Sequence record: SRR22947727_1212
Strand: one strand, 5' to 3'
DNA: 56,587 nt
The translations under genes were made by a program, and so were the position numbers. Shown here one piece after another: positions 1 to 48,847 of the stretch. A model generated the notes under the pieces. That model saw only the letters and a program-made list of their open reading frames with translations, searched no databases and was not told where the DNA came from. Numbering within the stretch: position 1 is the stretch's first letter; every line of letters starts with the position of its first letter.

Positions 1-1
1 A

Positions 2-409
2 GCTCGCTACCTGAATGCTTGTGATACAAAAAATGTTGAGCTTATGAGAGATTGCTTCACTTCTGATGCCGAAATTCAATTTCCTCCACTTGGTAATTTT
101 GATTTAGAGGGCCTAATTAAAATCTTCCAAGAAGTAGCGGCTACTACACCAATATCCGACATTCACCATGGACATAATGGCGAAATTGAGATTCAAGGTT
201 CCACTGCAAATGGTAGATGGAATCTTGGCTTTGCCACCTATGACCCGCGAACTAAAAATTTTCGTATGATGAGTAGCATATATGAAGATCGTTACAGAAA
301 AACTGATAATGGGTGGCGAATTTGCTTCACTAAATCAACACCAAGAACAATAATTGATGGCATTCTTAAAGATGAGGGCTTAACAATTAATTGGAATGAA
401 AATATATAA
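2..409 (+). CDS. SnoaL/NTF2-like protein (5'-truncated by window edge)
   Basis: Frame is open from base 2 (ARYLNACDTKNVELMRDCFT..). Typical SnoaL_4 pattern: RY..ACD.K....MRDCFT.DA, HHGHN.EI, YEDRY.K...GWRI. Confidence 0.8.
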   Translation, partial: ARYLNACDTKNVELMRDCFTSDAEIQFPPLGNFDLEGLIKIFQEVAATTPISDIHHGHNGEIEIQGSTANGRWNLGFATYDPRTKNFRMMSSIYEDRYRKTDNGWRICFTKSTPRTIIDGILKDEGLTINWNENI

Positions 410-418
410 GGAAGAGAA

Positions 419-907
419 ATGGATAAGAATTTAACCTACATAGACCCAGAAGCTGTAGTTGTTTCCAAAACTGTACAAATTAATGCCCCCTCTAGTTTAG
501 TTTGGGAAATTTTACTTGATATGAAAAACTATAATAAATGGAATCCATTTTGCGTTGAGTGTGAATCAACATTAGAAATTGGTGCGGCTGTAAATATGAA
601 GTTAAAGTCATACGTCAATTGCGAACCATCATATTTCAATAATACTGAATTTGTATGCGAACTAATTTCTGAAAAAAAAATATCATGGGAACTGCCACAT
701 TATGATGCATGGCCCTATCCAGCACGAAGAGATCAATTCATTAAAAAACTAAGCGAAAATAGTAGTGCTTACTATTCAACAGATCAATTTCTAGGCCCCA
801 ATGGAATACATGTGATGAGATTTGCAGGACCATGGGTTAAACAAGCATTCGATGATACAGCGGATGCATTAAAAATTTATGCTGAAGAAAAATTTATATC
901 TAACTAG
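419..907 (+). CDS. SRPBCC/START (polyketide cyclase-like) ligand-binding protein
   Basis: V.INAP...VWEILLDM.NY.KWNPF N-terminal signature and a C-terminal helix (..ALKIYAE). Confidence 0.75.
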   Translation: MDKNLTYIDPEAVVVSKTVQINAPSSLVWEILLDMKNYNKWNPFCVECESTLEIGAAVNMKLKSYVNCEPSYFNNTEFVCELISEKKISWELPHYDAWPYPARRDQFIKKLSENSSAYYSTDQFLGPNGIHVMRFAGPWVKQAFDDTADALKIYAEEKFISN

Positions 908-1349
908 AAATAGGTACAAAGTCCTCAGGAACATTATGAAAATAACTTAGGGACTCATATCGTGCGGCAATTTTCCAACTACCAGAAATTTTAACTAATT
1001 TATCAAAATACCAAAGCCCCACAAAAAAAGTATGCGGAGACTTATTTCGTTCAATCACCATAGGGTTGAAAAGCATAGTTTTTGATTGTGCAGTTAATCC
1101 ATCCACTTCAATCTTTGGCAATCCCATCATATGTTGCATTGACAAAAAGGGCTTGAGAGCTTTTTCGAGATACAGTTTAATCTCTTTTAAATTGCCTTTT
1201 ATTCCTCCTGCCTCTGTAAAGTCAATAATAGCATTATCAGTGAAAATCTCATTTAACAACTTCCATTCACGAGTATCAATAGCTTCACAATAAGACATCA
1301 GTAAATCTTGAATCTCTAAACGATCAGAAATTTCTTGAAGCTTATACAT
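900..1349 (-). CDS. NTF2/SnoaL-like protein
   Basis: SDRLEIQDLL..Y..AID.REW..L..IFT.NA..DF; QH; GLWY.D.LV.....WKI..R. Confidence 0.8.
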   Translation of the reverse strand: MYKLQEISDRLEIQDLLMSYCEAIDTREWKLLNEIFTDNAIIDFTEAGGIKGNLKEIKLYLEKALKPFLSMQHMMGLPKIEVDGLTAQSKTMLFNPMVIERNKSPHTFFVGLWYFDKLVKISGSWKIAARYESLSYFHNVPEDFVPISS

Positions 1350-1360
1350 AATTCATAAAT

Positions 1361-1843
1361 CTAAAAGTTATCCAGAAGGGGTGTGACAATTTTTGCTACT
1401 CTGTTATCATATTTTACAACATCCACAACAACAGACGTCTCAACCAATCGAACTCCCTCAAGGTCTAATATTTTATTGCTTGCAACCTGATGGACTTCAG
1501 AAAGACCCTCAAACAAACCTATTGCCAATATATCAAAACGGCCTAAAAGAATTATAACACCATTGATTTCTGGCAAGTTAGCTATTCTTTTTGCTACTTC
1601 TTTTATTGAATTCTGCTCAGCATGAATTCCAATATATGCTAGCTGAGGGGTGTCAAGATTAGACATATTGGTAACTGCTGTAAAACGGATATAATTTTCG
1701 TCTTCCAACCTTTTTACCCGGGAGCGAATAGTACCTTCCGTAAAACCAAGTTGTGTCGCTATTTTGCGATTTGATAGACGTGCGTCTGTAGATAATAACT
1801 GTATTATTTTCTGGTCAAGGTCATCAATCTTATAACTAGTCAC
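1361..1843 (-). CDS. Lrp/AsnC family transcriptional regulator
   Basis: IDDLDQKIIQLLSTDARLSNRKIA..LG.TEGTIRSRVKRLE HTH plus RAM domain (LLGRFDIL). GTG start with GGAG 6 nt upstream. Confidence 0.9.
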   Translation of the reverse strand: MTSYKIDDLDQKIIQLLSTDARLSNRKIATQLGFTEGTIRSRVKRLEDENYIRFTAVTNMSNLDTPQLAYIGIHAEQNSIKEVAKRIANLPEINGVIILLGRFDILAIGLFEGLSEVHQVASNKILDLEGVRLVETSVVVDVVKYDNRVAKIVTPLLDNF

Positions 1844-1852
1844 TTATAACTC

Positions 1853-2317
1853 CTAGATGGGTGCCACATCAAAATCATACTTAATTATATCAACAGCAAA
1901 GCTAGGGTCTAGACTTCTCACACCCTTTATTTGAGACAATTTATTTAGTAAAAAATCTGACATTTTATTCATACTTGATAGTGTAACTAAAATTTCAATG
2001 TCATGTTTTCCAGCTACTAATTGAACCGAAGCAACCTCTGATAATAATGCAATGTCTGCAGCCACATCATTTGCACGCCTTCCCTTAACATCAACACCAA
2101 TTGGTAACAAAACATTATAATCAAAAGCTGAAAAATCCGAAACAGCAACAACCTTCATTGCTTTTGATTGCTCCATTCGTCGTATTCGTGTTGTAACCAT
2201 TGAAGTTGTTACACCCAATTGATCAGCAATTTTTTGGTTACTGGTACGTCCATCTTTCTTCAAGATTTTTATAATAGCATTATCTAAGTCACTAAATTGA
2301 AAATTGTTATCCGACAT
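1853..2317 (-). CDS. Lrp/AsnC family transcriptional regulator (second paralog)
   Basis: DLDNAIIKILKKDGRTSNQKIADQLGVT...V.TRIRRME HTH; VAGKHDI in the RAM domain. Confidence 0.9.
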   Translation of the reverse strand: MSDNNFQFSDLDNAIIKILKKDGRTSNQKIADQLGVTTSMVTTRIRRMEQSKAMKVVAVSDFSAFDYNVLLPIGVDVKGRRANDVAADIALLSEVASVQLVAGKHDIEILVTLSSMNKMSDFLLNKLSQIKGVRSLDPSFAVDIIKYDFDVAPI

Positions 2318-2402: not shown

Positions 2403-2432
2403 TGCGTATATTTTACTATCTTTTCCTCTGCA
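2403..2432. promoter_or_regulatory. Degenerate TGCGTA-N18-TACGCA operator (TGCGTA-N18-TCTGCA)
   Basis: Lies between the divergent lrp pair and the GMC gene. Further half-sites: AACGTA at 2433 and TGCGTA at 2466 (63 bp from 2403). Confidence 0.6.
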
Positions 2433-2476
2433 AACGTATAAATTTAAGCTATGTTTTTCTTTAAATGCGTAATTTA

Positions 2477-4090
2477 ATGACTAAAGAATTTGATTATATT
2501 ATTATAGGTGCGGGTTCAGCTGGATGCGTTTTAGCTAATAGACTAAGTAAAAAACCTAATGTAAAAGTTGCTTTGATAGAAGCAGGCGGGAATGATACTG
2601 ATCCAGCAATTCACATGCCCATTGGATATGGAAAAAGCCTTTATAACCCAAAAATATCATGGAGCCTTAGAACTCAACCTGAACCTTTAATGAATAAGCG
2701 AATTTTACCGTTACCCCGCGGGAAGGTATTAGGTGGCTCAAGTTCAATAAATGGAATGATATATATTCGTGGGCATAAGGAAGATTATAATACGTGGTCC
2801 AACCTTGGCTGCAAAGGCTGGGGGTTTCAAGATATTTTACCTTATTTTAAAAAATCAGAAAATTATAAATCGGGTAAAAATAGATTACATGGTGGAAACG
2901 GTCCCTTAACTGTTTCAGAAATTATTGATAAAAATCCGACTAACGACTCAATTATTAGAGCATTTACTGAATACGGTATTCCTAAGAATTATGACTTCAA
3001 CGGTGATTACCAAGAAGGCGTAGGCTACTATGATGTAAATATAAAAGATGGTAAAAGATGCTCAACTTCCACTGCTTTTTTGGAACCGGTTAAAAAAAGA
3101 AAAAATCTTTTTATTCTTAGGCATACGTATGTTAAAAAAATAAATTTCGAAAATAAATGTGCAAAAAGTGTAGTTGTTGATAATAGAAAAAAAACAGAAA
3201 CACTCAGGGTGAACAAAGAAATTATTCTTTCTGCTGGTACTTATAAAAGCCCTCAACTTTTGCAGTTATCAGGTATCGGCTCAGCTCAATTTCTTAAGTC
3301 TATAGGCATTAAAGTTTTATTTAATAGCCCTGAAGTAGGAGAAAACCTTCAAGATCACTACATGGCGCCAATGGCCTGGTCACTTAAACCAAGAGCATTT
3401 AGTTATAACAATGAATTACGAAACTTAAATTTAATTAAAAATATAATAAAATATTATCTTTTTCGAAAAGGTCCAATGACCATCCCTGCAGCATCAGTTG
3501 GAGCCTTTATAAAAAGTAATGAAAGCTTAGACCGTCCTGATTTGCAGTTCCACTGCTTGGCGGTAACCGGTGATCTTTCGGCCGCAAGCAGGGGAGAAAA
3601 TGCAAAATTAACTAAGTACCCAGGACTTACAATTGGGGGAGCCCAGTTGCGACCGCAATCGCGTGGATTTGTAAAATGTGCATCAAATGATCCATTTGAT
3701 GATCCAGTAATATCTCATAATTATCTGTCGGCCGAAATGGATAGACATTTAATAATAAAAGCAATGGATATATCTAGAGAACTAGCAAAAATGCCATCAT
3801 TATCAAATATCATTGATCAAGAAAAACTTCCTGGGCATAATATTATAACCAATGATGAAAAAATAGAATGGCAGCTAAAACTTGGCACTACAATGTACCA
3901 CCCTGTTGGTACTTGTAGGATGGGAAATGAAAGACATTCAGTAGTAGACTCTAATTTACAAGTAAATGGTGTTCAAGGGTTGCGCGTTATTGATGCCTCA
4001 ATAATGCCACGAATTGTTTCAGGTAATACAAATGCTGCTACTATAGCAATCGCAGAAAAAGGCGCAGAATTGATAATTAATAAAATGTAA
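2477..4090 (+). CDS. GMC family oxidoreductase (choline/alcohol dehydrogenase-like)
   Basis: FDYIIIGAGSAG FAD motif, RGKVLGGSSSINGM, YHPVGTC, GNTNA. Start taken at MTKEF (ORF track gives 2465). Confidence 0.9.
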   Translation: MTKEFDYIIIGAGSAGCVLANRLSKKPNVKVALIEAGGNDTDPAIHMPIGYGKSLYNPKISWSLRTQPEPLMNKRILPLPRGKVLGGSSSINGMIYIRGHKEDYNTWSNLGCKGWGFQDILPYFKKSENYKSGKNRLHGGNGPLTVSEIIDKNPTNDSIIRAFTEYGIPKNYDFNGDYQEGVGYYDVNIKDGKRCSTSTAFLEPVKKRKNLFILRHTYVKKINFENKCAKSVVVDNRKKTETLRVNKEIILSAGTYKSPQLLQLSGIGSAQFLKSIGIKVLFNSPEVGENLQDHYMAPMAWSLKPRAFSYNNELRNLNLIKNIIKYYLFRKGPMTIPAASVGAFIKSNESLDRPDLQFHCLAVTGDLSAASRGENAKLTKYPGLTIGGAQLRPQSRGFVKCASNDPFDDPVISHNYLSAEMDRHLIIKAMDISRELAKMPSLSNIIDQEKLPGHNIITNDEKIEWQLKLGTTMYHPVGTCRMGNERHSVVDSNLQVNGVQGLRVIDASIMPRIVSGNTNAATIAIAEKGAELIINKM

Positions 4091-6001
4091 TTATTTTATC
4101 CAAATAGCTGAACTCCATGCACGATCCTGAATAGTAGCCTGCATATTTGGATTCGGAGGTGTTCCATTGCGAACCGCATCCCAAGTACTCCAACGACACT
4201 TTGGGTTTTCCAATACACGAATATAGTAAGCAGATTTTTGCCCAGGAATATAGTTAGGGTCAGACCAAAGCGCTTTGAGTTCGCTACTACCCGTCTCATC
4301 ATTCGTTTGACAGTTAGATAAATCAACTGATGCGCCATTTTCAGGACATCTATTTGTGTCAGGGGATGGCTGAAGATCTCCTGCACAAGAAATATCATAA
4401 ATCTGCTCAAAGTTATCAGTTTCATCCGACCAAACCTTTATAATTTGTATTCGCTGTAAAGGGTATCCATCAGGATCCTTTATGGCCCATGCAATAAAAT
4501 CTGGTGAATTAGTTCCACTACTTTTAGTACCACCCATTGGTACTCCATTTTTATATGCCTCTTCTAGCATATTTGTTGATGATAAAATCGTATCATTGTA
4601 GTTTCCTGCAAAAAAACGTGTTTTGATACGTGGCCCCGATGTTGCAAAGGTTTCTTTACGTTTCATAGCATCAAATATATCTTCGCGTGTGTTGGACTCA
4701 GCCCAAACACCAGCTAAACCAGACGCTCCGTATGAGGCAGAAGATATAAAAGCTAACTCCGTCTCTTCACTTACAACATTTTCCCAAGACATTTTACCAT
4801 CTGGGGGCACTGATCCTCGATTAGCAAGATCAGTATCATGCGGGAACTTACCAAAATGCTGCTCCTCAGATAGCGATGGAGCACTAACATGAGTATCAGA
4901 TGATCCAATAAATCCGAATTCATATGGATTTTTACCAATATTCTGCTCGATACCAATTCCTCTGGAAAGGGCCTGGCGAACAAAACTACCAGGGACTTTT
5001 TGACTCTCTGTCGCCATGCCAACCAAAATTTCATAAAGTTCATGATTTGCGAATTCATCTTCAGGGGATAGTAAAGGGTGTGTTTCAGAGGTGCCCTTAA
5101 CTTGAGTCATTTCTACTATAGGTTCATTTTTAATCCGGTTTGCTGCATAGGTTTTAGTAATGGGGGAACCATCAGACATTGTCATAGAAAACATCTGGCC
5201 GTTAGATGCGTTAGAGTTGTGAGGTATTGATAATACATCAAAGCCTTCATCCCGTTTATCATTCATCCAGTTCCAAAGGTCTTCAGGGTTTGTTGAATCA
5301 AGTGTTGAAAACAAACGTTCAGGGGCTCTATCACGAAAAATCACATTACGGTGCAAGTTAATTGCTCCCAAATTATCTGCTATTTCACCAATAATATCCA
5401 TATTAGTATATTCATAAGCAGCAAAAGTTGTAAATCTACCAGGATCATAATGCTTTTCTGCTGCAAGAACATTCTCTGCCCACGCACTATCTATGAAGTC
5501 CCTATCATAAATATCTTCTATTGGGTCTCCTGTTACTATTGTTGTTCCAACCTTTGTAAAGGCTTCAATTCGAGCCTCTCTTGACCCACCAAATATTCCA
5601 AATATTGATTTTGCTGTATCTGTTTTGGAAATAGGGTTATTTCTATCACGCATTGCAGCTAGAACACCCATATATTCCCCATGATCGGTTACTCCGTAAA
5701 AATCTAAAGGGGGACCAGAAATCGTAATATCCTTACCTGCCCCATTATCAATGGTATCACCCTTTGCAAAACGGTAAGCATCATCTGCGGTTGTTCTCGT
5801 TCCTGTTATAAAAGCATCAAAAGAGTTTTTTGTATGCACATGCAAGTCACCAAAATATGCATTTCTTGTACCAACTTTTTCAATTAAAATCGGAGTTGTT
5901 TTTGATTCAACCACAGAAATTTCTTTTTCTGATTTTTCCATGCAGCCTGTAGTTAACAATAGACAACATGCAGCGCTTCCTAGGTAAATATTTTTAAACA
6001 T
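4091..6001 (-). CDS. DUF3604 family lipoprotein (PHP-like putative metallohydrolase)
   Basis: YFGDLHVHT..SFDA, GVTDH, LHRNVIF, IPHNSN, GSSDTH, YY.RVLENP.CRWS, QDRAWSSAIW; lipobox LLTTGC. Confidence 0.8.
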   Translation of the reverse strand: MFKNIYLGSAACCLLLTTGCMEKSEKEISVVESKTTPILIEKVGTRNAYFGDLHVHTKNSFDAFITGTRTTADDAYRFAKGDTIDNGAGKDITISGPPLDFYGVTDHGEYMGVLAAMRDRNNPISKTDTAKSIFGIFGGSREARIEAFTKVGTTIVTGDPIEDIYDRDFIDSAWAENVLAAEKHYDPGRFTTFAAYEYTNMDIIGEIADNLGAINLHRNVIFRDRAPERLFSTLDSTNPEDLWNWMNDKRDEGFDVLSIPHNSNASNGQMFSMTMSDGSPITKTYAANRIKNEPIVEMTQVKGTSETHPLLSPEDEFANHELYEILVGMATESQKVPGSFVRQALSRGIGIEQNIGKNPYEFGFIGSSDTHVSAPSLSEEQHFGKFPHDTDLANRGSVPPDGKMSWENVVSEETELAFISSASYGASGLAGVWAESNTREDIFDAMKRKETFATSGPRIKTRFFAGNYNDTILSSTNMLEEAYKNGVPMGGTKSSGTNSPDFIAWAIKDPDGYPLQRIQIIKVWSDETDNFEQIYDISCAGDLQPSPDTNRCPENGASVDLSNCQTNDETGSSELKALWSDPNYIPGQKSAYYIRVLENPKCRWSTWDAVRNGTPPNPNMQATIQDRAWSSAIWIK

Positions 6002-6009: not shown

Positions 6010-6777
6010 TTAACTTCCTGTCCAGTTTGGCTTTCTTTTTTCTGAAAAAGCTTTAATGCCTTCAATGGCATCATTACTATTTCTCCAATTTATAAATTCA
6101 TGATAACTTTCCTGTTTGGCAATTGCATTTTCTAAACTTTCCTCGGATAGCCCTTTACTAACAGTCATTTTGGAGGCTTGGATGGCCATGGGTGCTCCCT
6201 TGAGAATATCGTAGCAATATTTTTTTACTACACCCGACAATTCATCATGAGGAACAACTTCATTCACAAACCCCATGCGCAAACCTTCTTCTGCTGAGTA
6301 TTTTCTTGATGTAAGTATCATGGCCATGGCATTTTTTAAGCCTATTTGACGAGGCAGCCTATGCAAACCACCACCTAATGCTATAGCACCGACTAAAGGC
6401 TCTGGCACGCCGAATGTACTTCTTTTACTGGCTACGATTAAATCACAAGCTAATGCAAGTTCAAATCCACCCCCTAAAGCATATCCATCAACTGCAGCAA
6501 TGACCGGTTTTGCTAAGTCGAAACGATTTATTAATCCAGCATATCCGCCTCTTGGATATTCACCATCTATACCATCATTTAAGTCACTACCAGCGCAAAA
6601 AGCTTTATCACCCTCCCCAGAAATTACTGCAACTAATTGATTTTTATTTGATGAAAAATCATCAAAAGCGGCATTCAAATTATGATGCATTTCATCAGTA
6701 ATTGAATTCATTGCCTCCGGGCGATTTAGTTTTATGAAAGTGACCGGACCATCATGGGATATGTTAACGTTCTGCAA
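6010..6777 (-). CDS. Enoyl-CoA hydratase/isomerase (CaiD-like crotonase)
   Basis: LNRPEAMN, AFCAGSDL, GYALGGGFEL, FGVPE, EG..AF.EKRKP.W. Confidence 0.9.
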   Translation of the reverse strand: MQNVNISHDGPVTFIKLNRPEAMNSITDEMHHNLNAAFDDFSSNKNQLVAVISGEGDKAFCAGSDLNDGIDGEYPRGGYAGLINRFDLAKPVIAAVDGYALGGGFELALACDLIVASKRSTFGVPEPLVGAIALGGGLHRLPRQIGLKNAMAMILTSRKYSAEEGLRMGFVNEVVPHDELSGVVKKYCYDILKGAPMAIQASKMTVSKGLSEESLENAIAKQESYHEFINWRNSNDAIEGIKAFSEKRKPNWTGS

Positions 6778-7890
6778 TTATTCTACCCTATTATCCATTT
6801 TGAGCTTAGTTACTTTTTTTTTATCATTACCCCACTCTGCATAAAATTGTGAAAAATATTTTCTAAATGGAAGTATTGGGCCATCGCCATCACATATACT
6901 GGGTTTCGGCATATATTTTTGACGATCCCACACTACCTTATCTTGATCCAATTGCTTACAAATTTCACGCCTCATAGCTTTTGCCAAGTTAGCCATGGGC
7001 CCTTCAGCTTCTTTTATTGGCTGAGTAAATGCAAACCTAATATGAGTTCTTTCTTGGTCTATAGGTGTTATTCCAGCTACCATCAAAGTTTCAGAAATTC
7101 CCGAAAATTTAGTCCAACTTTGTCCAGCTCCAATAGTTCCATAAGCTATAGTACCATCAACAACACCTTTTGGGGTTGGCATTTTAGCATCAACACTTGC
7201 CGTTCGTTTATGCCCATCAAATTCAAAATTGTAATTAGGAAAATCATTTGTACCATGAATATATTTAAAATGAGCAGCATCAACTCCATTTTCCGCCATA
7301 TTTTGCACAGGCCCATGGACAATCCATTCATATTTTTTATAATCAGTCCAGTCCTTATCATGAACTTGTTCGAAAGTCTCTGGCTGCCACTTTGGGGGCT
7401 CATTAAATGGATGGTACCAAACTAATATTTGTTTGTTGCTCTCTTCAACAATCCACTCTTTTTCGCAAGGTCTGGCAGCGGAAGGTGGTATTTTTTTTGC
7501 ATAAGGTACAGCTATCACACTTCCTTTGCTATTATATTCCCATGCATGAAATGGACACTCCAATGAGTTTCCTTTGACTCTACCGCCATAACCCATGTGT
7601 GCACCTAAGTGCTTACAGTATGCATCAATAATTCTAGCCCGTCCGTCTTCACCTCGCCAAAGAACTAAATCTTTACCAAAGTAAAAAAGAGGTTTGACTT
7701 CACCTACTAAGAGTTCATCCGAATATGCAACCATAAACCATCCAAATGGCAGAGGTAATGTGTCAAGATTGCGGTCTTTAATTGAAGCTCTGTTATCAAC
7801 TGAATTCATTCTCCAAGCAGTTAAGCCCTCCCCCTTCAGGCCTTCTAATTGAGCCCATACAGCGACGTGAGATGTAGTATTCGAACTCAT
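6778..7890 (-). CDS. Rieske oxygenase, KshA/Neverland family
   Basis: Rieske CKH...CPFH; mononuclear Fe site ENGVDAAHFKYIH; C-terminal QD..VW....Y...P..CDGDGPI..FR.YF.QFY. Confidence 0.85.
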   Translation of the reverse strand: MSSNTTSHVAVWAQLEGLKGEGLTAWRMNSVDNRASIKDRNLDTLPLPFGWFMVAYSDELLVGEVKPLFYFGKDLVLWRGEDGRARIIDAYCKHLGAHMGYGGRVKGNSLECPFHAWEYNSKGSVIAVPYAKKIPPSAARPCEKEWIVEESNKQILVWYHPFNEPPKWQPETFEQVHDKDWTDYKKYEWIVHGPVQNMAENGVDAAHFKYIHGTNDFPNYNFEFDGHKRTASVDAKMPTPKGVVDGTIAYGTIGAGQSWTKFSGISETLMVAGITPIDQERTHIRFAFTQPIKEAEGPMANLAKAMRREICKQLDQDKVVWDRQKYMPKPSICDGDGPILPFRKYFSQFYAEWGNDKKKVTKLKMDNRVE

Positions 7891-10496: not shown

Positions 10497-10526
10497 TGCG
10501 TATTTTTTATGTTTATTTTCTACGCA
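10497..10526. promoter_or_regulatory. Operator TGCGTA-N18-TACGCA (perfect)
   Basis: aaTGCGTAttttttatgtttattttcTACGCAtt in the divergent acyl-CoA ligase / SDR intergenic region. Confidence 0.8.
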
Positions 10527-15098: not shown

Positions 15099-15128
15099 TG
15101 CGTAGTTAATGCGCAACAATACTACGCA
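15099..15128. promoter_or_regulatory. Operator TGCGTA-N18-TACGCA (perfect, 10-bp arms)
   Basis: AATGCGTAGT...ACTACGCATT. A degenerate second copy TTCGAC-N18-TTCGCA lies at 15161-15190 (62 bp away). Confidence 0.8.
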
Positions 15129-15211
15129 TTTGAAGAAAAAAGAAAGAAAAAATAGTAGTTTTCGACATTTTTAGCGTGATTTATTTCGCATTTAGATTAT
15201 ATACTATATTT

Positions 15212-16450: not shown

Positions 16451-16473
16451 TATGAAGCTAATTGGAGATAATA

Positions 16474-28363: not shown

Positions 28364-28364
28364 G

Positions 28365-39259: not shown

Positions 39260-39407
39260 ATGTGTTTCCCCTTGTGTAGTACCAGGCATTCTTGCCCATA
39301 TCATTATTTACACTACTTCATTTTAAAAAAGTGCGCAATGGAATACTCGCAAGAAAAATGTAAAAAAATGCGCGTTTTACAATAAAAAGGGTCTTAAAAT
39401 GTTATTT

Positions 39408-39437
39408 TGCGTAGTATTGTTGCATATTTGTTACGCA
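39408..39437. promoter_or_regulatory. Operator TGCGTA-N18-TACGCA (perfect)
   Basis: ttTGCGTAgtattgttgcatatttgtTACGCAaa upstream of the TBDR; first 16 nt identical to the reverse complement of the 15099 site. Confidence 0.8.
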
Positions 39438-40310: not shown

Positions 40311-40340
40311 TGCGTAAAAATATATACTAGTAATTACGAA
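40311..40340. promoter_or_regulatory. Operator TGCGTA-N18-TACGAA (1 mismatch)
   Basis: Divergent SDR/3alpha-HSD intergenic region; a degenerate AACGTA-N18-TATGAA lies at 40249-40278 (62 bp away). Confidence 0.7.
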
Positions 40341-40358: not shown

Positions 40359-41120
40359 ATGAAAATAGCAGTTGTAACTGGTTCCGCATCAGGTATTGGG
40401 GCATGCATAAAGACTCGATTGGAAGCTCAAGGGTATTCAGTAATAGGCATCGATTTGCAAGGACAAGAAATTGATGCTGACCTATCAACTCCTGAGGGCC
40501 GGCAATATGCTATAAATACAACATTGAAATTATCGAATAATCGTATCGATAAATTAGTCTTAGCTGCAGGAGTAGGAGGACACATAGAAAATGGTCAGCT
40601 AGTAGCTAAAGTAAACTATTTTGGATGTATTGAGTTATTGGATGGATTCAAATCAGTACTTGAAAAAAGCAATGGGCGGGTTGTTGTTATTTCCTCTAAT
40701 TCAGCGCAAATGAGAACTGATCCAGAAAACATTATAATTAAGCATCTCTTAGAAGAAAATGAGGCTAAAGCAATGGTAGAAATAGGTGATGCGCATGGCG
40801 CCCAAATTTATGCATTATCAAAACATGCTGTTGCACGGGCCATAAGACGAAGATCTTCAGATTGGGGCAAATTAGGAATTACATTAAATGCCATAGCGCC
40901 TGGACAAACAGAAACGCCTATGTTTCGCGGAGCTGCTGATCACCCAGAAATCGGAAAAAGTGTTGGGATGATACCAATCCCTAAGAAAAGAGTAGCTAGG
41001 GCTGATGAGATAGCAGGTGTTATAGAATTTATGCTCTCTGACAGTGCAGATTATATGCAAGGAAGTATTATATATGTGGACGGCGGAACTGATGCACAAT
41101 TAAGACCTGATGAATTTTAA
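40359..41120 (+). CDS. 3alpha-hydroxysteroid dehydrogenase/carbonyl reductase-like SDR
   Basis: TGSASGIG, VIGID....IDADLSTPEGR, LVLAAG, VNYFG..EL.D, YALSK, LNAIAPG.TETP, VDGG.DA..RP.EF; closely recalls the Comamonas 3alpha-HSD pattern. Confidence 0.75.
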   Translation: MKIAVVTGSASGIGACIKTRLEAQGYSVIGIDLQGQEIDADLSTPEGRQYAINTTLKLSNNRIDKLVLAAGVGGHIENGQLVAKVNYFGCIELLDGFKSVLEKSNGRVVVISSNSAQMRTDPENIIIKHLLEENEAKAMVEIGDAHGAQIYALSKHAVARAIRRRSSDWGKLGITLNAIAPGQTETPMFRGAADHPEIGKSVGMIPIPKKRVARADEIAGVIEFMLSDSADYMQGSIIYVDGGTDAQLRPDEF

Positions 41121-41123: not shown

Positions 41124-42983
41124 TTGGTACATAAGGATAAAATAACTCGAAGAGATTTTCTAAGTGGATCGCAAATAGCAATAGGGGCTGCACTTTATCC
41201 TTCTATTATTTCTTCTTGCTCCAAAACTAACTCGAAACTGAAATATTCTAACGTTTTTCAACTGCCTGACACATATTACCCCCCACAAAAAATTGGTTTA
41301 AGAGGAAGTCACGACGGATCTTGGGAAACAATGCACTCCCGGGTATCAGGTAGAGATTTTCCGCATCAACAAATATCAGAGGAGTATGATCTTGTAATTG
41401 TCGGTGGGGGAATTAGCGGACTTTCAGCAGCCTATTTTTTTCAAAAAGAGCAACCAAATAGTAAAATTCTGATTATGGACAACCATGATGATTTTGGGGG
41501 ACATGCTAAGCGAAATGAATTTAACATAGATGGAGATCTTCGTATTGGCTACGGAGGAACTGAAGCTATAGATACGCCGTCCGCCTACAATACAGAGTCT
41601 ATTAAACTTTTAAGTGAAATAGGCATTAAAATTGAGAAATTTTATAATTACTTTGATCAAGATTTTTGGACGCGTAATAAATTATCAAAATCTATAGTGT
41701 TCGATGAAGAAACCTTTGGGGAAGATAAAATTGTTTTCGGATATGGGTCTCGCAGTTGGAAAGATTTTGCAGCAGATATGCCTGTTAGTGACAAAGCAAA
41801 ATCTGACTTTGTAAGAGTACATACATCCAAAGAAGACTATTTACCAAACTTAAATTTGACAGAAAAATATGAACTTTTGAAGAAGACAAGCTATGAGGAC
41901 TATTTACGTAATTACTGCAAAATCGATGAACAAATAATCAATATTTACAAAAGATGGGGAATGAGTTTTTGGTGCGTAGGGATAGATGAAATTCCAACCA
42001 CATCAATACAGGACTATGATGGTGGCATGCCAGGTGTAACTCACACATTACCAAGAACAGGGCACCGAAATGATGAGCCGTATATATTTCATTTCCCTGA
42101 CGGGAATGCATCAATAGCAAGATTGCTAGTCAGAAAGCTAATACCTTTAGCTATGCCTGGTTCTACTATGGAGGACGTGGTATTAACTAGAGCAAATTAT
42201 TCAGAATTGGATAGAACTGGTAATAATATTAAAATTAGACTAAACAGCACTGCTGTAAAAATTTCAAACATTGAAAGTGAAAGAGCAGTTTTAACAACCT
42301 ATGTGAGAAATAATAAAGCCTATACAGTTAAATCTAAAAAATGTATTTTAGCATGTTATAATTCAGCTATTCCCTACATTTGCCCTGAAATTCCAGATAT
42401 TCAAAAAGAAGCTTTATCATATAATGTAAAAGCCCCCTTAGTTTATACTAAAGTAGCAGTACCCAACTGGAAGCATTTTGAGCAATTAAAAACAGATTTT
42501 GTATATTATACGTCGGGTTTTTACAAACAGGTTGAGTTTGCTTATCCAGTTGAAATGGGGGGCTATAAAGCTGTTGGAAAATCTGACTCTCCCATGATTC
42601 TGCATATGTGCCATGTTCCTTGGGTCCCTGATATTAAAGGGGCTGATCAATGGCGCGCTGGTAGATATAGTGTGCTAACAACAACTTTTCAGCAGTATGA
42701 GAACCATGTAAAACAACAACTACTTCAAGCACTTGGTAGCACTGGGTTTAATCCAGATAAAGACATAAGCGCAATAACTGTAAACCGATGGCCACACGGA
42801 TATGCTTATAGTCCAGATTTAATCTGGGAGCCTCACTATAATAATGAGAGCGAAAAACCTTGGGTCATAGGCAGAAGACCATTTGGCAGTATACACATAG
42901 CAAACTCAGATGCTGGTGCTAGTGCAGATACAAACACTGCTATATCTCAAGCCTTCAGGGCAGTGCAAGAAATTCTAAATTAA
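41124..42983 (+). CDS. Spermidine dehydrogenase-like (SpdH) Tat-exported flavoprotein
   Basis: ITRRDFL Tat motif, YYPP...GLRGSH, YDLVIVGGGISGL, DNHDDFGGHAKRNEF, FHFPDGNASIARLLVR, ITVNRWPHGY, IANSDA. Confidence 0.8.
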   Translation: MVHKDKITRRDFLSGSQIAIGAALYPSIISSCSKTNSKLKYSNVFQLPDTYYPPQKIGLRGSHDGSWETMHSRVSGRDFPHQQISEEYDLVIVGGGISGLSAAYFFQKEQPNSKILIMDNHDDFGGHAKRNEFNIDGDLRIGYGGTEAIDTPSAYNTESIKLLSEIGIKIEKFYNYFDQDFWTRNKLSKSIVFDEETFGEDKIVFGYGSRSWKDFAADMPVSDKAKSDFVRVHTSKEDYLPNLNLTEKYELLKKTSYEDYLRNYCKIDEQIINIYKRWGMSFWCVGIDEIPTTSIQDYDGGMPGVTHTLPRTGHRNDEPYIFHFPDGNASIARLLVRKLIPLAMPGSTMEDVVLTRANYSELDRTGNNIKIRLNSTAVKISNIESERAVLTTYVRNNKAYTVKSKKCILACYNSAIPYICPEIPDIQKEALSYNVKAPLVYTKVAVPNWKHFEQLKTDFVYYTSGFYKQVEFAYPVEMGGYKAVGKSDSPMILHMCHVPWVPDIKGADQWRAGRYSVLTTTFQQYENHVKQQLLQALGSTGFNPDKDISAITVNRWPHGYAYSPDLIWEPHYNNESEKPWVIGRRPFGSIHIANSDAGASADTNTAISQAFRAVQEILN

Positions 42984-43025: not shown

Positions 43026-43046
43026 TTTCTGAACGCTGTTCGGAAA
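43026..43046. promoter_or_regulatory. TetR-type operator TTTCTGAAC-GCT-GTTCGGAAA
   Basis: Third copy, 26 bp before the SDR start; TTGACT at 43002. Confidence 0.8.
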
Positions 43047-45388: not shown

Positions 45389-46984
45389 TTAGTCGTATTT
45401 AATCCGCCCTATTTCTTTATGTGTTTGTTGCAACACAGTTGTAGCTATAGGACTAAACCCTTCCCACATTTCCTCTTTTACTTGCTCTGCAGGTATAACA
45501 ACATCAGCATAATCATTTGGGGCCCTCCAGCCCGGGTGTGGCTGTATTTTAACATATTGACCTCCAACTGGATGCTTGGCTAACCTTTTATCTAATACTT
45601 TAATTAACCGCATAACTAAATCAGGGTGTTTTTGAGATATATCATTTACCTCATTAGGATCGGACCATACATCAAATAATTCAGTGATAACTTCAGTGGT
45701 TCTCCGCTTATGGTTTACACTTTGAACTAACTTCCATCTTTCGTCCAATACACCATACTTAAATTGATTATAAATTGGAACATTTGATGTGAAAATCAGC
45801 GGTTCGCCTCTTTCCCTTTTATCGTTACCTATAATAGCATTCCATCTATCCAAGCCATCAATTTTCTTTTTGTAACTTGCCGATATACCAGCTGCTGTCA
45901 TTAAACTTGGGTAAACGTCTAAAACTGAAACAACATTTTCATTTACTGAGTTAGAAGGCAAAACATCCGGCCACCTCAAGACTGCATTTACTCTGACGCC
46001 ACCCTCATAAGTTTCAAGTTTTCCTCCACGCAAAGGCTCATTCACCCCTCCAAAATTATAATAGCCGCCATTGTCGGAGAAAAACAAAACTATTGTGTTA
46101 TCAGTAATTCCTTGGCTATCCAAGCTTTCAAGAATATTACCAATGGCTTGGTCAAGACTATCAACCATGGCTGCATAAGTTTTAGCAGGGTGAAGGGGAG
46201 TATCTAACCTTGAGGGATATTTTGATTTATCTTCTTCTTTTGCCTCCATAGGCGAATGCGGGGCAAGAAAAGGAACATACAAAAAGAAAGGCTTATCTGG
46301 ATTTCGAATATTTTCAATATAGTGTGATGCTTGATTTCCATGTATATCAGTTGCATATTCGCCCGCATGGTCAACTGGTTTTCCATTCACCTGAAAATCA
46401 TGGCCACCTGCAAAAGTATGATCGAAATAAAGTACGTCAGTGTTAAAGTGACCATAGAAATGATCAAATCCACGCGCATTTGGAGTATGCTGTTCGATTG
46501 TATGACCCAAATGCCACTTCCCAACCATGGCGGTTTGGTAGCCAGCTTTTTTAAAATCTTCTGGCATAAATCTTTCAGTAGGAGAAATCCCAGCGTTATC
46601 CCATGCCATGAAAACAGCATGAGCAGCACCCAACTTTATTGGATCACGCGCGGTCATCAGAGCAGCACGAGTCGGCGTACAAAAAGGAGTGGCATAAAAA
46701 CGCTCTAAACGCATTCCTTCTTTTGCTAAGCGATCTATATTCGGAGTGTTTATATCGCTTCCTCTATAACCAACGTCAGCCCAACCCAAATCATCAGCTA
46801 AAAGAATTATAACATTTGGTGGAGGAGCGCTGTCTAAGCGGGTTTTAACTAATTCAGATAAATTTACAGTCTCATTAGAGGTAAAATCAAAATCTGAGGA
46901 TGCATTTTTATTAAATTTAGTTTTCAAGAAAAATGATGATGAAACAACTAAAATAATAATAATAATAAATATTAATTTTTTCAT
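45389..46984 (-). CDS. Formylglycine-dependent (aryl)sulfatase, membrane-anchored
   Basis: PNVIILLADDLGW, CTPTRAALMTAR, GKWHLG, FSDNG, RGGK..YEGG.RV; N-terminal TM. Confidence 0.9.
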   Translation of the reverse strand: MKKLIFIIIIILVVSSSFFLKTKFNKNASSDFDFTSNETVNLSELVKTRLDSAPPPNVIILLADDLGWADVGYRGSDINTPNIDRLAKEGMRLERFYATPFCTPTRAALMTARDPIKLGAAHAVFMAWDNAGISPTERFMPEDFKKAGYQTAMVGKWHLGHTIEQHTPNARGFDHFYGHFNTDVLYFDHTFAGGHDFQVNGKPVDHAGEYATDIHGNQASHYIENIRNPDKPFFLYVPFLAPHSPMEAKEEDKSKYPSRLDTPLHPAKTYAAMVDSLDQAIGNILESLDSQGITDNTIVLFFSDNGGYYNFGGVNEPLRGGKLETYEGGVRVNAVLRWPDVLPSNSVNENVVSVLDVYPSLMTAAGISASYKKKIDGLDRWNAIIGNDKRERGEPLIFTSNVPIYNQFKYGVLDERWKLVQSVNHKRRTTEVITELFDVWSDPNEVNDISQKHPDLVMRLIKVLDKRLAKHPVGGQYVKIQPHPGWRAPNDYADVVIPAEQVKEEMWEGFSPIATTVLQQTHKEIGRIKYD

Positions 46985-47011
46985 TTAATTACCTCAAAAA
47001 TTACTTTAAAT

Positions 47012-48679
47012 CTATGAATTAGAGCCCATAGCATGTTTAGCAGCCACATAGCCAAAAGTCATTGCCGGTCCAATTGTTGAGCCTGCGCCTGGATAAGTAT
47101 ATCCCATAACAGATGATGCAGTATTTCCCGTTGCATATAAGCCGATGATAGGTTTGCCTTTTTTATTTAGCGCTTGTGCATTTACATCAACATCAACTCC
47201 TCCCTTGGTGCCTATATCACCTGGAAACACAGGAAAGGCATAAAATGGGGCCTTCGACAAAGGTGCCAGGCATGGATTAGGAGTAACTGATGGGTCACCA
47301 TAGTATCTATCATATGATGTGCTGCCTGAATTAAAGTCCTGATCAATTCCTGTTTCGGCGTATTGCGCAACCTTTTTTACCGTATCTACTAAACCAGCTT
47401 GATCCACACCCATTAAAGACGCTAACCCCTCTATAGTATCAGATTTTTTAACAATAGCTTTTATAGAGCTATTCCATTTTGAATCTGGATGAACTGCTGT
47501 TGGGTAAAGAGGACCAATTCCGTACTTTTCTCTTGCACGGCGATCGAAAATAACCCAGCTAGTTTTTGGATGTGCTTGAAGCTGGCGCCCAACCTCATCA
47601 TAACTAGCTGCTTCATTTAAATATCTTTTTCCATTTTCATTAACTATATATATTCCAGGTAAAGCTCTCTCTGCGAATAAAATTCTTGAACGATCATCTC
47701 TTGGAAGACGCACAGAAGGCCCCCACCAAGCTGCATCCATCAAAGTAAGATTTGCTCCAACTGCTTCGGCCGCTATATGAGCATCACCAGTATTTTGGCC
47801 TGGAGGAGTAGCACTCCAGTTGGTATCTGTTGGTCCAGGTAAATTAGCACTTCTCATGTGAGAGTTATGTTCAAAACCACCCGCAGCAAGAATAACACCG
47901 CGCTTTGTCTTAATCAAAATATCTTCACCATCTTTAGTAATTATAGCTCCTGTTACTTTACCATTTTTTTCAATGAGCGACTTTAAAGAAGCTGACCTCC
48001 AAATAGGTATATTCCTCTTAAAAACCGAAGTTAAACATCTTCCTACCAAAGCATTTCCCAAACATAAGCGACGATGCCTCTTAGATTTCAATCGCATTGG
48101 TACATCCAAACGATAGGATATCATCAACTTAGCCATTATCCACTTCCAACCCTTGGAACGAGTTATAATTTTTTTTGCTTCATTAACCGTTATTGTAAAA
48201 CCACCAAAAATTGTTTGTGGATGCGGAGGTCGCATATTTAAAAACTCTTTACCTAATTTTGTCGCTGACATTGGAAGAGGGTCAAGAGTTCGCCAACCAT
48301 CTTTACTTCCTGGTTTTTCAGTAAGATAATCAGCATATGGTGTTGAAACAAACTTTACGTCTGATTTTTCTTCCATCTCTTTTAGCATTTTCGGAGCATT
48401 CTCAACGTAGGCTTTTAAACGACTTTCAGGAACCTTATCTCCCACGCATGCTTTCAAGTACTCTAAGGCAGCATCTGGAGAGTCAGATTCGCCGTGTTCT
48501 GCCATAAGATGATTACAAGGTATCCATATACCTCCACCCGAAGTGGCTGATGTACCGCCATACATATCAGATTTTTCAATAACTAAAACATTACCACCGT
48601 TATCATGAGCTGTTATAGCGGCAGTTAATGCTCCTGCACCAGACCCAACAACCAGTACATCATATTCTGTAGTATCCAT
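47012..48679 (-). CDS. 3-ketosteroid-delta1-dehydrogenase-like FAD protein (KstD family)
   Basis: DVLVVGSGAG, GGTSATSGGGIWIP, YADY, NEAASY, PGDIGTKGG, GLYATGN, YPGAGSTIG; the three Tyr segments used by KstD appear present. Start taken at MDTTE. Confidence 0.8.
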   Translation of the reverse strand: MDTTEYDVLVVGSGAGALTAAITAHDNGGNVLVIEKSDMYGGTSATSGGGIWIPCNHLMAEHGESDSPDAALEYLKACVGDKVPESRLKAYVENAPKMLKEMEEKSDVKFVSTPYADYLTEKPGSKDGWRTLDPLPMSATKLGKEFLNMRPPHPQTIFGGFTITVNEAKKIITRSKGWKWIMAKLMISYRLDVPMRLKSKRHRRLCLGNALVGRCLTSVFKRNIPIWRSASLKSLIEKNGKVTGAIITKDGEDILIKTKRGVILAAGGFEHNSHMRSANLPGPTDTNWSATPPGQNTGDAHIAAEAVGANLTLMDAAWWGPSVRLPRDDRSRILFAERALPGIYIVNENGKRYLNEAASYDEVGRQLQAHPKTSWVIFDRRAREKYGIGPLYPTAVHPDSKWNSSIKAIVKKSDTIEGLASLMGVDQAGLVDTVKKVAQYAETGIDQDFNSGSTSYDRYYGDPSVTPNPCLAPLSKAPFYAFPVFPGDIGTKGGVDVDVNAQALNKKGKPIIGLYATGNTASSVMGYTYPGAGSTIGPAMTFGYVAAKHAMGSNS

Positions 48680-48787
48680 TTTTTCACCATCAATTAAAAA
48701 TATCTGATATGTACGTGCAATCAAAACATCATTTTTGCAAACACAAAATACGCAAAATGCCCTATAATAATAAAATAAGTTATAAAT

Positions 48788-48817
48788 TGCGTACCATACT
48801 TATATTATATCTACGCA
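48788..48817. promoter_or_regulatory. Operator TGCGTA-N18-TACGCA (perfect)
   Basis: tTGCGTAccatacttatattatatcTACGCAa upstream of the KstD-like gene; another TACGCA at 48749, 63 bp from the one at 48812. Confidence 0.8.
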
Positions 48818-48847
48818 AAATAACTATTTTTTTACTTATTTTAATAA

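Follow-up and report, generated by a model that had tools for sequence, protein, structure and literature searches.

A ~90-kb gene island probably encoding aerobic 9,10-seco steroid degradation, with sulfatases and two conserved operators, in a Hellea-like marine alphaproteobacterium

The 56,587-nucleotide stretch SRR22947727_1212, here called the window at its full length, carries 42 genes between positions 1 and 48724, as found by six-frame open reading frame (ORF) analysis with Pfam and NCBIfam scans, and then passes into housekeeping genes. A first-pass annotation of this DNA had listed a TonB-dependent receptor (TBDR), an MFS carrier, a DUF3604 protein, an SpdH-like flavoprotein, a 3alpha-HSD-like enzyme, a 3-ketosteroid delta1-dehydrogenase (KstD), an old-yellow-enzyme (OYE) flavoprotein, a cytochrome P450, a ferredoxin, a TetR regulator and a pair of Lrp/AsnC regulators, and this inventory is borne out (Table 1). 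Here we describe these genes, together with two formylglycine-type (S1) sulfatases (Sulf1 and Sulf2), as the peripheral half of an island of ~90 kb. In our reading, to which we give a probability of roughly 0.7, the island serves the aerobic 9,10-seco degradation of steroids, with bile-salt-like or sulfated steroids as the likeliest substrates.

Its kin point to a Hellea-like marine alphaproteobacterium, an abundant organism with a small genome of ~1.8 Mb, as the host. Related loci lie in metagenome-assembled genomes (MAGs) titled Hellea, Algimonas, Maricaulaceae, Hyphomonadaceae and Caulobacterales (Sulf1 identity 60-94%), and the DUF3604 protein is 74% identical to its counterpart in Hellea balneolensis. 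More distant loci with Sulf1 homologues belong to Parvibaculales and Porticoccaceae/SAR92 MAGs. SAR86, which was considered as host for its low GC content and many TonB receptors, is set aside in view of the kinship with Hellea, Algimonas and Maricaulaceae MAGs and of the DUF3604 match. A 1.8-Mb assembly (G001; 90 contigs, 97% complete), 100% identical to the window over positions 1-20000, was used as a stand-in for the host genome. The window starts at position 41847 of its contig C7; a contig break drops approximately window positions 40206-45141, with C7 ending near 40205 and C8 beginning near 45142.

The 41.8 kb that precede the window on contig C7 hold a canonical 9,10-seco core (Table 1, upstream blocks). 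HsaA is the best NCBIfam match of the HsaA-like protein, with 317 bits, and HsaC scores 223 bits for the extradiol dioxygenase, both below equivalog cut-offs built mainly on actinobacterial sequences; the PRK08290 hydratase scores 413 (cut-off 280). The HsaD-, HsaEFG- and IpdA-type genes are domain-level matches, and the IpdB candidate has no Pfam hit. The whole island, from a phosphoglucomutase fragment to radA, spans ~90 kb and ~84 ORFs, or ~5% of the 1.8-Mb genome. The first-pass annotation had pictured a self-contained, non-canonical system of 49 kb that lacks hsa/tes ring cleavage, and had advised a search of the rest of the genome for hsa/tes genes. Taken alone, the window does lack, by Pfam, an extradiol ring-cleavage dioxygenase, HsaAB, HsaD, an acyl-CoA dehydrogenase (ACAD) and a MaoC protein; all of these lie directly upstream on the same contig (four ACADs in the core operon), they share an operator with the window (operator A, below), and the unit is bounded only at ~90 kb. 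A self-contained system is therefore extremely improbable, and the content as a whole is of the hsa/tes type. Two Sulfotransfer_3 genes (L005 11376-12704 and 18703-19860, corresponding to G001:C7:31376-32704 and 38703-39860) are also present in this sulfatase-bearing catabolic island, as are an LCM-type methyltransferase (L005 6250-7143) and a dienelactone-hydrolase-fold protein.

Within the window, the steroid-type substrate first proposed is supported by KstD, the KshA-like oxygenases and the 3alpha-HSD, alongside the upstream core. The best solved match of KstD, 7p18, is a cholestenone delta1-dehydrogenase. The three KshA_C proteins in the window are all that G001 encodes, and the oxygenase at 16462-17547, with its full-length matches to solved structures, is the best candidate for KshA. 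Two of them stand behind operator A sites, as first described, and the third sits in the TetR operon. For the 3alpha-HSD/carbonyl reductase (CR) homologue, the next solved match after 1fjh and 2dkn falls to E 5e-17. The SnoaL_4 protein at 900-1349 has four solved relatives, with three BaiE bile-acid 7alpha-dehydratases at the top (E 1e-6 to 1e-5, weak matches), followed by an uncharacterised protein. CasG, the second-best NCBIfam model for acyl-CoA ligase 1, is a steroid-24-oyl-CoA synthetase. The thiolase-like lipid-transfer protein (Ltp) and the DUF35 protein are a candidate side-chain aldolase/thiolase pair. Hydrophobic or lipobox-like N-termini are seen in both sulfatases, the MBL-fold protein, DUF3604 and a conserved 527-aa protein. 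With the CTPTR formylglycine motif of the sulfatases, such signal-like sequences agree with the exported hydrolases of the first description, the signal, lipobox, twin-arginine and CTPTR motifs having been read by eye.

Two palindromic operators mark the island promoters. Operator A (TGCGTA-N18-TACGCA) occurs in the window as four exact sites (10497, 15099, 39408 and 48788) and one site with a single mismatch (40311), all of them intergenic, where 0.05 are expected. Copies with two mismatches at 2403 and 10434 are weak when taken alone (mononucleotide shuffles average 1.7 hits). Of the 25 TGCGTA/TACGCA half-sites in the window, 12 fall within its 1,541 intergenic bases. Operator B (TTCNGAACGCTGTTCGRAA) has three sites (23078, 32368 and 43027) against 0.04 expected. 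Among ten promoter-bearing gaps, six carry A (that between the Lrp and GMC genes a degenerate copy only), three carry B and none carries both, as first claimed; the accompanying claim that every such gap has an operator holds for nine of the ten, the exception being 36554-36661. B marks the promoter of the TetR-P450-Rieske-SDR-propeller genes with the divergent crotonase, that of the CoA-transferase/DUF35/Ltp/ligase operon with the divergent ferredoxin-hydrolase pair, and that of the SDR-aldehyde dehydrogenase (ALDH) pair.

Across the whole of G001 there are five exact A sites, all inside the island, and five with one mismatch, two in the island and three outside (C10, C49 and C81; a reversed-pattern control gives 1). 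With up to two mismatches allowed, operator B is confined to the two of its island positions present in the assembly. Upstream of the window, A-type sites are found in four promoter gaps, at C7:21310 (before the HsaA operon), 22962, 28898 (exact) and 35934, and operator B in none of the upstream promoter gaps. Operator A thus marks the whole island, ring cleavage included, and B a sub-regulon. The two interleaved programmes of the first-pass annotation stand as a cis-regulatory pattern, tied to the Lrp pair and TetR, but not as a functional split, since CoA ligases and a hydratase also lie behind A. The exact site at C7:28898-28927 overlaps the nominal TTG start of the HsaB-like ORF (L005 8897-9886; G001:C7:28897-29886), so that the true start of this gene is probably further downstream.

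Both operators recur in relatives. In 47 loci fetched around Sulf1 homologues in other MAGs, 28 exact A sites are spread over 18 loci in orthologous gaps, namely those before the receptor gene, between SDR4 and the 3alpha-HSD and before kstD, and B is found between the ferredoxin and CoA-transferase genes and before the SDR-ALDH pair. Symmetrised over 33 distinct sites, operator A is flanked by A/T-rich sequence, with a purine following the outer box and GC at its centre. In 301 alphaproteobacterial genomes, G001 alone has more than one exact A site, and 16 of the other 300 have exactly one, a background level; this class-wide sample is sparse, with one or two genomes per family, and is uninformative on Sphingobium Chol11. 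Both operators are real, island-specific and conserved in relatives.

The distribution of the island was followed in 81 genomes of the family, with thresholds of E<=1e-30 for the Lrp1 orthologue and E<=1e-170 for the Sulf1/Sulf2 clade. Thirteen genomes have exact A sites, 2-7 apiece and grouped within tens of kb, and the other 68 have none; the Lrp1 orthologue follows the same division (13/13 and 0/68). KstD is present in 12 of the 13, the one lacking it being the 89% complete G072. The sulfatase clade is present in 11 of the 13 and absent from the other 68, save one distant, 38%-identical hit. Operator B (up to one mismatch) is found in 7 of the 13, with single 1-mismatch hits in three other genomes. 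The island is patchily distributed (5 of 26 genera). As its carriers are related and inherit it as a block, co-occurrence here means linkage and not mechanism. The conserved gene order runs kstD, Sulf2, ALDH, SDR, 3alpha-HSD, SDR, TBDR, Sulf1, MBL and continues with hydrolase, ferredoxin, CoA-transferase, DUF35, Ltp, the 105-aa protein and ligase (the synteny table does not include TetR). A steroid-type marker (KstD, KshA-like or 3alpha-HSD) accompanies Sulf1 in 33 of the 47 loci, from three orders; the 14 markerless loci include short contigs and most of the gammaproteobacterial hits.

Table 1. Features of the window (window positions), followed by the gene blocks of the upstream part of the island on G001 contig C7, listed leftward
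Feature	Position	Strand	Evidence and remarks
SnoaL_4 protein	2..409	+	Pfam PF13577 E 4.8e-21; 5' end upstream of window, full ORF L006 1785-2255
SRPBCC/Polyketide_cyc2-like	419..907	+	Pfam PF10604 E 2.6e-8, N-terminal part only
SnoaL_4, candidate steroid dehydratase/isomerase (weak)	900..1349	-	Pfam E 3.3e-27
Lrp/AsnC regulator 1	1361..1843	-	HTH_AsnC + AsnC_trans_reg
Lrp/AsnC regulator 2	1853..2317	-	same domains; 34% identical to regulator 1
Operator A, degenerate, 2 mismatches	2403..2432	.	Lrp/GMC divergent gap
GMC oxidoreductase, choline-dehydrogenase-like, candidate alcohol oxidation	2465..4090	+	Pfam; PRK02106 558.9 vs cut-off 605
DUF3604, N-terminal signal/lipobox-like	4091..6001	-	Pfam E 1e-202
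Enoyl-CoA hydratase	6010..6777	-	ECH_1 E 3.4e-61; best NCBIfam DpgD, EchA19, both sub-cut-off
KshA-like Rieske oxygenase 1	6778..7890	-	KshA_C + Rieske; 37% to Ksh3, 27% to Ksh2
Amidohydro_2 metal hydrolase/decarboxylase	7890..8768	-	Pfam
Acyl-CoA ligase 1	8755..10416	-	AMP-binding; second-best NCBIfam CasG 313 bits vs cut-off 750
Operator A, exact	10497..10526	.	plus 2-mismatch copy 10434-10463
Two SDR dehydrogenases	10564-11328, 11338-12159	+	Pfam; 7alpha-HSDH among sub-threshold NCBIfam matches
MFS transporter	12200..13489	-	MFS_1 E 5e-48
Acyl-CoA ligase 2	13486..15048	-	PRK07798 546.7, above cut-off 543
Operator A, exact	15099..15128	.	
OYE flavoprotein	15176..16450	+	Oxidored_FMN; BaiCD among sub-threshold matches
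KshA-like Rieske oxygenase 2	16462..17547	+	KshA_C 180.7 bits; 2zyl E 5.8e-43, 4qdc, full-length
Conserved 527-aa protein, N-terminal helix + beta-propeller	17557..19140	-	no Pfam family
SDR dehydrogenase	19154..19945	-	Pfam
KshA-like Rieske oxygenase 3, TetR operon	19945..20967	-	SdmA match, Rieske part only, 60 bits vs 600
Cytochrome P450	20977..22377	-	Pfam; nearest solved CYP51 E 1.8e-35, CYP46A1
TetR regulator	22371..23069	-	TetR_N; likely ATG 23069, longer GTG ORF to 23102
Operator B, 1 mismatch	23078..23096	.	TetR/ECH divergent promoter, TetR gene 5' end
Crotonase-fold protein	23123..24091	+	ECH_1 on residues 150-320, profile positions 3-173 of 251
Amidohydro_3 metal amidohydrolase	24068..25366	-	Pfam
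Family III CoA-transferase-like, partial domain	25357..26616	-	Pfam
Acyl-CoA ligase 3	26606..28057	-	Pfam, NCBIfam
Conserved 105-aa protein	28058..28375	-	no Pfam family; syntenic in relatives, 57-87% identity
Thiolase-like lipid-transfer protein (Ltp)	28365-29522	-	PRK07855 472.9, above cut-off 469
DUF35/ChsH2-type protein	29522-29911	-	zf-ChsH2 + OB_ChsH2_C
Fused double family III CoA-transferase, 805 aa	29912..32329	-	two CoA_transf_3 stretches; 75-94% identity in relatives
Operator B, exact	32368..32386	.	same gap in 7 relatives' loci
2Fe-2S ferredoxin	32430-32744	+	Pfam
Alpha/beta hydrolase	32744-33610	+	Pfam
MBL-fold, alkylsulfatase-like, N-terminal hydrophobic anchor	33586..34989	-	Lactamase_B + marginal Alkyl_sulf_dimr
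S1 (formylglycine) sulfatase 1 (Sulf1), lipobox-like signal	34982..36553	-	Pfam; CTPTR at residue 94
Sigma70-like promoter for Sulf1	36579-36552	-	10-of-12 match
Terminator hairpin behind TBDR	36637-36613	-	
TBDR	36662..39304	-	plug + barrel domains
Operator A, exact	39408..39437	.	most conserved copy among relatives
SDR dehydrogenase	39471..40235	-	Pfam
Operator A, 1 mismatch	40311..40340	.	
3alpha-HSD/CR homologue	40359..41120	+	1fjh E 3.7e-53, 2dkn E 1.8e-46, full-length
SpdH-like flavoprotein, twin-arginine motif	41124..42983	+	7d9i E 9e-138
Operator B, exact	43027..43045	.	
SDR	43073-43948	+	Pfam, NCBIfam
ALDH	43951-45354	+	Pfam, NCBIfam
S1 sulfatase 2 (Sulf2)	45389..46984	-	53% identical to Sulf1; CTPTR
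KstD	47012..48724	-	7p18 E 4.5e-153, 4c3x E 3.5e-86
Operator A, exact	48788..48817	.	island right edge, kstD/radA gap
radA, cvpA, purF and other housekeeping genes	from 48918		right of island
SDR, DUF1214, two Sulfotransfer_3, FGE	upstream block 1		accessory
Second FAD_binding_2 flavoprotein, SDRs, MFS carriers, dienelactone-hydrolase-fold protein	upstream block 2		
HsaB-like flavin reductase, OYE, LCM-type methyltransferase, SnoaL_4 proteins	upstream block 3		
FadD3-family ligase	upstream block 4		657.3 bits vs cut-off 657
HsaA-like, then HsaD-, HsaE-, HsaG-, HsaF-type genes	upstream block 5	-	start of long operon
HsaC-type extradiol dioxygenase, IpdA-type CoA transferase, PRK08290 hydratase, NMO-family	upstream block 5	-	same operon
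Four ACADs, thiolase, SDRs, MaoC protein, SnoaL_2 protein	upstream block 5	-	same operon
ECH + AtuA gene	upstream block 6		
Phosphoglucomutase (PGM/PMM) fragment	upstream block 7		island left edge, contig start

In the route that we propose, the TBDR would import conjugated steroids across the outer membrane. The two exported formylglycine sulfatases and the membrane-anchored MBL-type enzyme would remove sulfate, the sulfatases being matured by the island's FGE, and the MFS carrier would then move the steroid across the inner membrane. Oxidation at C3 by the 3alpha-HSD-like enzyme and other SDRs would be accompanied by desaturation by KstD, the upstream flavoprotein and OYE, and with 9alpha-hydroxylation by a KshA-like oxygenase rings A/B would be opened. 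Side-chain oxidation may involve the P450 with the ferredoxin, the GMC oxidoreductase and the SDR/ALDH pair; the side chain would be activated with CoA and shortened by the three ligases, the hydratases, Ltp/DUF35 and the family III CoA-transferases, while the upstream Hsa, FadD3 and Ipd genes would finish the nucleus. The features lean to a bile-salt-like substrate over plain 3beta-sterols because of the 3alpha-HSD homologue, the (weakly) BaiE-like SnoaL_4 protein, the OYE, the operon of ligase, Rieske oxygenase and amidohydrolase, and the tandem Lrp genes. Bile-alcohol sulfates would yield primary alcohols after desulfation, which would suit the GMC oxidoreductase, the SDR/ALDH pair and the ligases.

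Several points weigh against this reading, and they concern in turn the enzymes, the regulators, the sulfatases and the material. None of HsaA, HsaB, HsaC and KstD reaches its NCBIfam equivalog cut-off (for KstD, the KstD models are the best matches, with 551.7 against 789), and the island has no KshB-type reductase, the sole NAD_binding_1 gene of G001 being on contig C5. Low equivalog scores could also mean that paralogues of steroid enzymes act on a different alicyclic or terpenoid substrate, such as a di- or triterpenoid or a hopanoid. The AtuA gene at the island's left edge and the P450, which is neither of the CYP125 nor of the CYP142 type, fit such a substrate. Steroid degradation is nevertheless favored by the joint presence of the 9,10-seco markers (KshA-like, KstD, HsaA/B/C/D-like, a FadD3-family ligase at cut-off and IpdA-like), by a specific 3alpha-HSD/CR homologue and by the close match of KstD to cholestenone delta1-dehydrogenase, and we regard a terpenoid substrate as very unlikely.

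As for the regulators, both Lrp/AsnC proteins have HTH and RAM ligand domains and score far below every NCBIfam equivalog cut-off, so that they are members of the family and not orthologues of Lrp or AsnC. The TetR protein has no KstR or KstR2 among its 26 solved matches (E<=0.01), which are TetR(B/D), ActR and similar proteins. Since B sits at the promoter of the TetR gene itself, TetR would bind B at the three promoters of the side-chain sub-regulon; the two Lrp/AsnC genes and the TetR gene being the only DNA-binding families among the ~84 island ORFs, operator A is left, by exclusion, for the tandem Lrp pair, which would bind it at nearly all island promoters, those of the core included. 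This assignment is also supported by co-occurrence in the 13 genomes and by proximity, exact A sites lying within about 0.6-4 kb of the Lrp orthologue in relatives (e.g. G055, G027, G062 and G002). Dimer sites of the Lrp family are 13-15 bp long, and a palindrome of 30 bp with a central GC is longer and unlike them; the site in the gap between the Lrp and GMC genes has two mismatches; and the co-occurrence of the Lrp gene and operator A is confounded, as both travel with the island. A different regulator, for example one encoded outside the island, might then bind A, the Lrp pair being local or amino-acid-responsive. Set against the exclusion, the 13/13 and 0/68 division and the short distances, we consider this rather unlikely and retain the probable assignment of A to the Lrp pair. 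For operator B, the search of the 13 genomes with the island came up empty in 6.

The three sulfatases first counted are in fact two S1 enzymes and a third protein that is only MBL/alkylsulfatase-like. The nearest solved relatives of Sulf1 are S1_19 and carrageenan and GalNAc (carbohydrate) sulfatases (E 1e-70), and human steryl-sulfatase matches only its N-terminal part. The MBL-type protein is distantly related to PSdsA, SdsA1 and Pisa1 (E 1e-14 to 1e-10), with which it shares the MBL domain and a marginal dimerisation domain (27.3 bits, cut-off 26); unlike SdsA1 and Pisa1 it is ~200 residues shorter (467 aa vs 633-668 aa) and lacks their C-terminal SCP2-like domain. The gap before Sulf1 (36554-36661) holds a terminator and a promoter and no operator, and the island-bearing, 100% complete genome G028 lacks a gene of the Sulf1 clade, so that the sulfatases are an optional module. 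G001 has four S1 sulfatases, of which two lie outside the island on C14, and ~17 TonB receptors. The carbohydrate-sulfatase relatives, the gap without an operator, G028 and the two sulfatases on C14 would suit an alternative in which unconjugated steroids or bile acids are degraded, and the sulfatases, FGE and DUF3604 share the locus but have another task, for example the use of sulfated sugars or sulfolipids or sulfur scavenging. Such an arrangement is made unlikely by gene context: Pfam results for the ~84 island ORFs contain no glycoside hydrolase or sugar-catabolic family, Sulf2 follows kstD at a distance of 27 bp, with an exact A site ahead of the two, the sulfatase clade is confined to island-bearing genomes of the family and is syntenic with steroid-type markers in most of the 47 loci, and the single FGE of G001 lies in the island. 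From this context, the sulfatases appear to be linked to steroid sulfates. One Sulf2-type gene of an island-bearing relative (G027:C1:26587-28023) has an in-frame TAG.

The first-pass annotation had also supposed that the substrates are conjugated, either sulfated or aminated. A sulfated substrate is plausible; the aminated part depends on one accessory gene for the SpdH-like protein (match to SpdH over residues 7-617, RRDFL motif), which is present in only 3 of the 12 other island-bearing genomes and lies in a strain-variable segment. In the family, the gene occurs in 3 of 81 genomes, all island-bearing, and once at the same position beside A sites; G001 lacks it owing to the contig break. 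It might extend the range to polyamine-conjugated sterols.

The material sets its own bounds. The organism is uncultured (metagenomes only, no isolate), and the RNA-library contigs from four runs that cover 29000-48950 cannot prove transcription. In run X14, a single 7.5-kb contig of flat depth that crosses divergent and convergent operons looks like DNA carry-over, and uncovered bins in runs X16 and X17 carry no meaning. A 10-kb segment of the window (33586-43585) is near-complete in 13 DNA runs from 9 marine studies (share of sampled words 0.93-0.95) and is also found in two metatranscriptome runs of one study (share 0.78). In two oligo-dT libraries of one sample, the receptor contig runs into adapter sequence at 36639, where a terminator hairpin is predicted, just past the receptor stop codon; this fits a transcript 3' end, and with low-depth contigs is a weak hint. 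The segment 40206-45141 is strain-variable, and further breakpoints lie at 40272, 41646 and 48826. A loose contig end at 41646, inside the SpdH-like gene, is common to three runs, and one low-depth contig joins 40272 to 48826, both ends adjoining operator A sites.

A bolder version of the steroid reading, which we put forward tentatively and think doubtful as it stands, is that the island is one regulon specialised for sulfated steroids derived from algae, invertebrates or fish, such as sterol 3-sulfates and bile-alcohol sulfates, and governed by the Lrp pair through the 30-bp palindrome, with a nested TetR sub-regulon for the side chain. If true, it would be the first operator-level model of steroid catabolism in Proteobacteria. 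The S1 sulfatase, the MBL-type enzyme and the 3alpha-HSD form a conserved trio. Pisa1 cleaves the C-O bond with inversion; if the MBL-type enzyme does the same, 3beta-sulfates would give 3alpha-alcohols and thus feed the 3alpha-HSD directly.

The arrangement of operators recalls the mycobacterial KstR/KstR2 system, in which two local repressor-type regulons with palindromic operators likewise split one steroid pathway, and operator B is an AAC...GTT-type palindrome (GAACGCTGTTCG) at the promoter of the TetR gene itself that may resemble the KstR motif. Unlike in KstR/KstR2, the dominant operator here is attributed to Lrp/AsnC proteins and extends to the ring-cleavage core. According to a 2021 review, the known regulators are TeiR, HsdR and KstR/KstR2, KstR homologues are absent from bile-acid-degrading Proteobacteria, and knowledge of regulation in the latter is limited (PMC8399759). 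The tes mega-cluster of Comamonas testosteroni and the proteobacterial 9,10-seco clusters taken as references in Bergstrand 2016 and Holert 2018 resemble the island as a single large unit with KstD, KshA, TesA/HsaA, TesB/HsaC, TesD/HsaD, TesEFG and C/D-ring genes, and a 3alpha-HSD/CR homologue is also shared; the regulators known there are TeiR and HsdR (same review), in place of the Lrp and TetR proteins of the island.

The closest precedents are from Sphingomonadaceae, namely cluster 2 of Sphingobium sp. Chol11 and, in Caenibius tardaugens, bsd I with the EGO55_09215/09220 pair. The Chol11 report describes a side-chain cluster that encodes a CoA ligase, an ACAD, amidases and a Rieske monooxygenase whose role is unknown, along with an MFS carrier and a TonB receptor; there is no clear KshB, and aldolytic candidates are reported as lacking (10.1101/2021.05.19.444901). 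A second report notes that two Lrp/AsnC genes adjoin each other in the Chol11 cluster and that the homologous Caenibius cluster has a TetR gene; it also finds, in Caenibius, an arylsulfatase beside an induced TonB receptor that is upregulated on cholate (PMC12882949). The sphingomonad cluster type includes the heteromeric ACAD Scd4AB; in the island, the four ACADs lie in the upstream core operon and none in the window. The island resembles the sphingomonad clusters in its alphaproteobacterial host and in the combination of ligase, KshA-like Rieske oxygenase and amidohydrolase with MFS carrier and TBDR, the window counterparts being the operon 4091-10416, the carrier at 12200 and the receptor at 36662 (a family-level comparison only). 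It shares the tandem Lrp/AsnC genes and the lack of a clear KshB with Chol11 and the TetR gene with Caenibius. Unlike these clusters, the island combines both types of regulator and pairs each with an operator that is defined and conserved; it has two S1 sulfatases, the MBL-type gene and FGE built in; and its host is planktonic and marine, with a small genome. The Ltp/DUF35 pair and ALDH further distinguish it from Chol11 as far as described; the amidohydrolases of the island belong to Amidohydro_2 and Amidohydro_3, and in the available text the Chol11 amidases are given without a Pfam family. The Amidohydro_2 protein is 70-74% identical to proteins of the Sphingomonadales Parasphingorhabdus, Pontixanthobacter and Croceicoccus; it is also 59% identical in Pseudomonadales MAG loci, where it lies beside a sulfatase and a KstD-like gene.

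Marine Proteobacteria were predicted as 9,10-seco degraders in Bergstrand 2016 (PMC4810484) and Holert 2018 (PMC5790920), the latter assigning steroid-degradation HMM hits to Hellea and Hyphomonadaceae; neither of these two papers mentions sulfatase or TonB. The TA441 preprint makes no mention of sulfatase, TonB, Lrp or AsnC, and a sulfatase tied to a KshA-bearing steroid-degradation gene cluster is not described in the literature searched. The pathway, the lineage and even the regulator families have precedents, then. Novelty lies in operators that are defined and conserved, in the extension of operator A across the entire island, in a module of sulfatases, MBL-type enzyme and FGE that is bound to the island (the S1 enzymes having an S1 domain, a Cys-type CTPTR and an FGE partner like other S1 sulfatases, with carbohydrate sulfatases and not steryl-sulfatase as the nearest solved relatives), and in an island of this size within a small marine genome that is widespread.

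In the sea, steroids make up a large stock of reduced carbon, and many of them carry sulfate; the access of planktonic bacteria to them is not described in the literature searched. Within the family studied here, the 9,10-seco island is bound up with one particular sulfatase clade and with the only FGE of the host genome, and the two operators offer testable handles on its regulation. The island also gives metabolic context to DUF3604, to a propeller family of at least 917 members and to the 105-aa protein.

DUF3604, which is barely mentioned in the literature searched and has a paralogue on G001:C50, has no solved relative by sequence, and its AlphaFold2 (AF2) model is poor (pLDDT 56.6). Its invariant residues (H54, H56, H107, E197, H217, H261, D369 and H371) presumably recall a PHP-type metal centre. 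The crotonase-fold ORF (23123-24091) has ~140 unexplained N-terminal residues and a C-terminus truncated relative to the profile, and its last 24 bases overlap the convergent Amidohydro_3 gene. For the 527-aa propeller protein, 917 homologues were found at E<=1e-10 among 7,993 candidates scored. Its AF2 model is good enough for comparison of folds (pLDDT 86), for which Foldseek returned only generic propellers (BamB, YxaL and PedH) and the Atlas only unnamed clusters, adding no function. Over 23 aligned homologues (46-88% identity) many Cys, Trp and Asp residues are invariant. Homologues in Porticoccaceae and LSUCC0057 loci adjoin a KshA-like gene and a sulfatase, and one homologue bears a Rieske domain.

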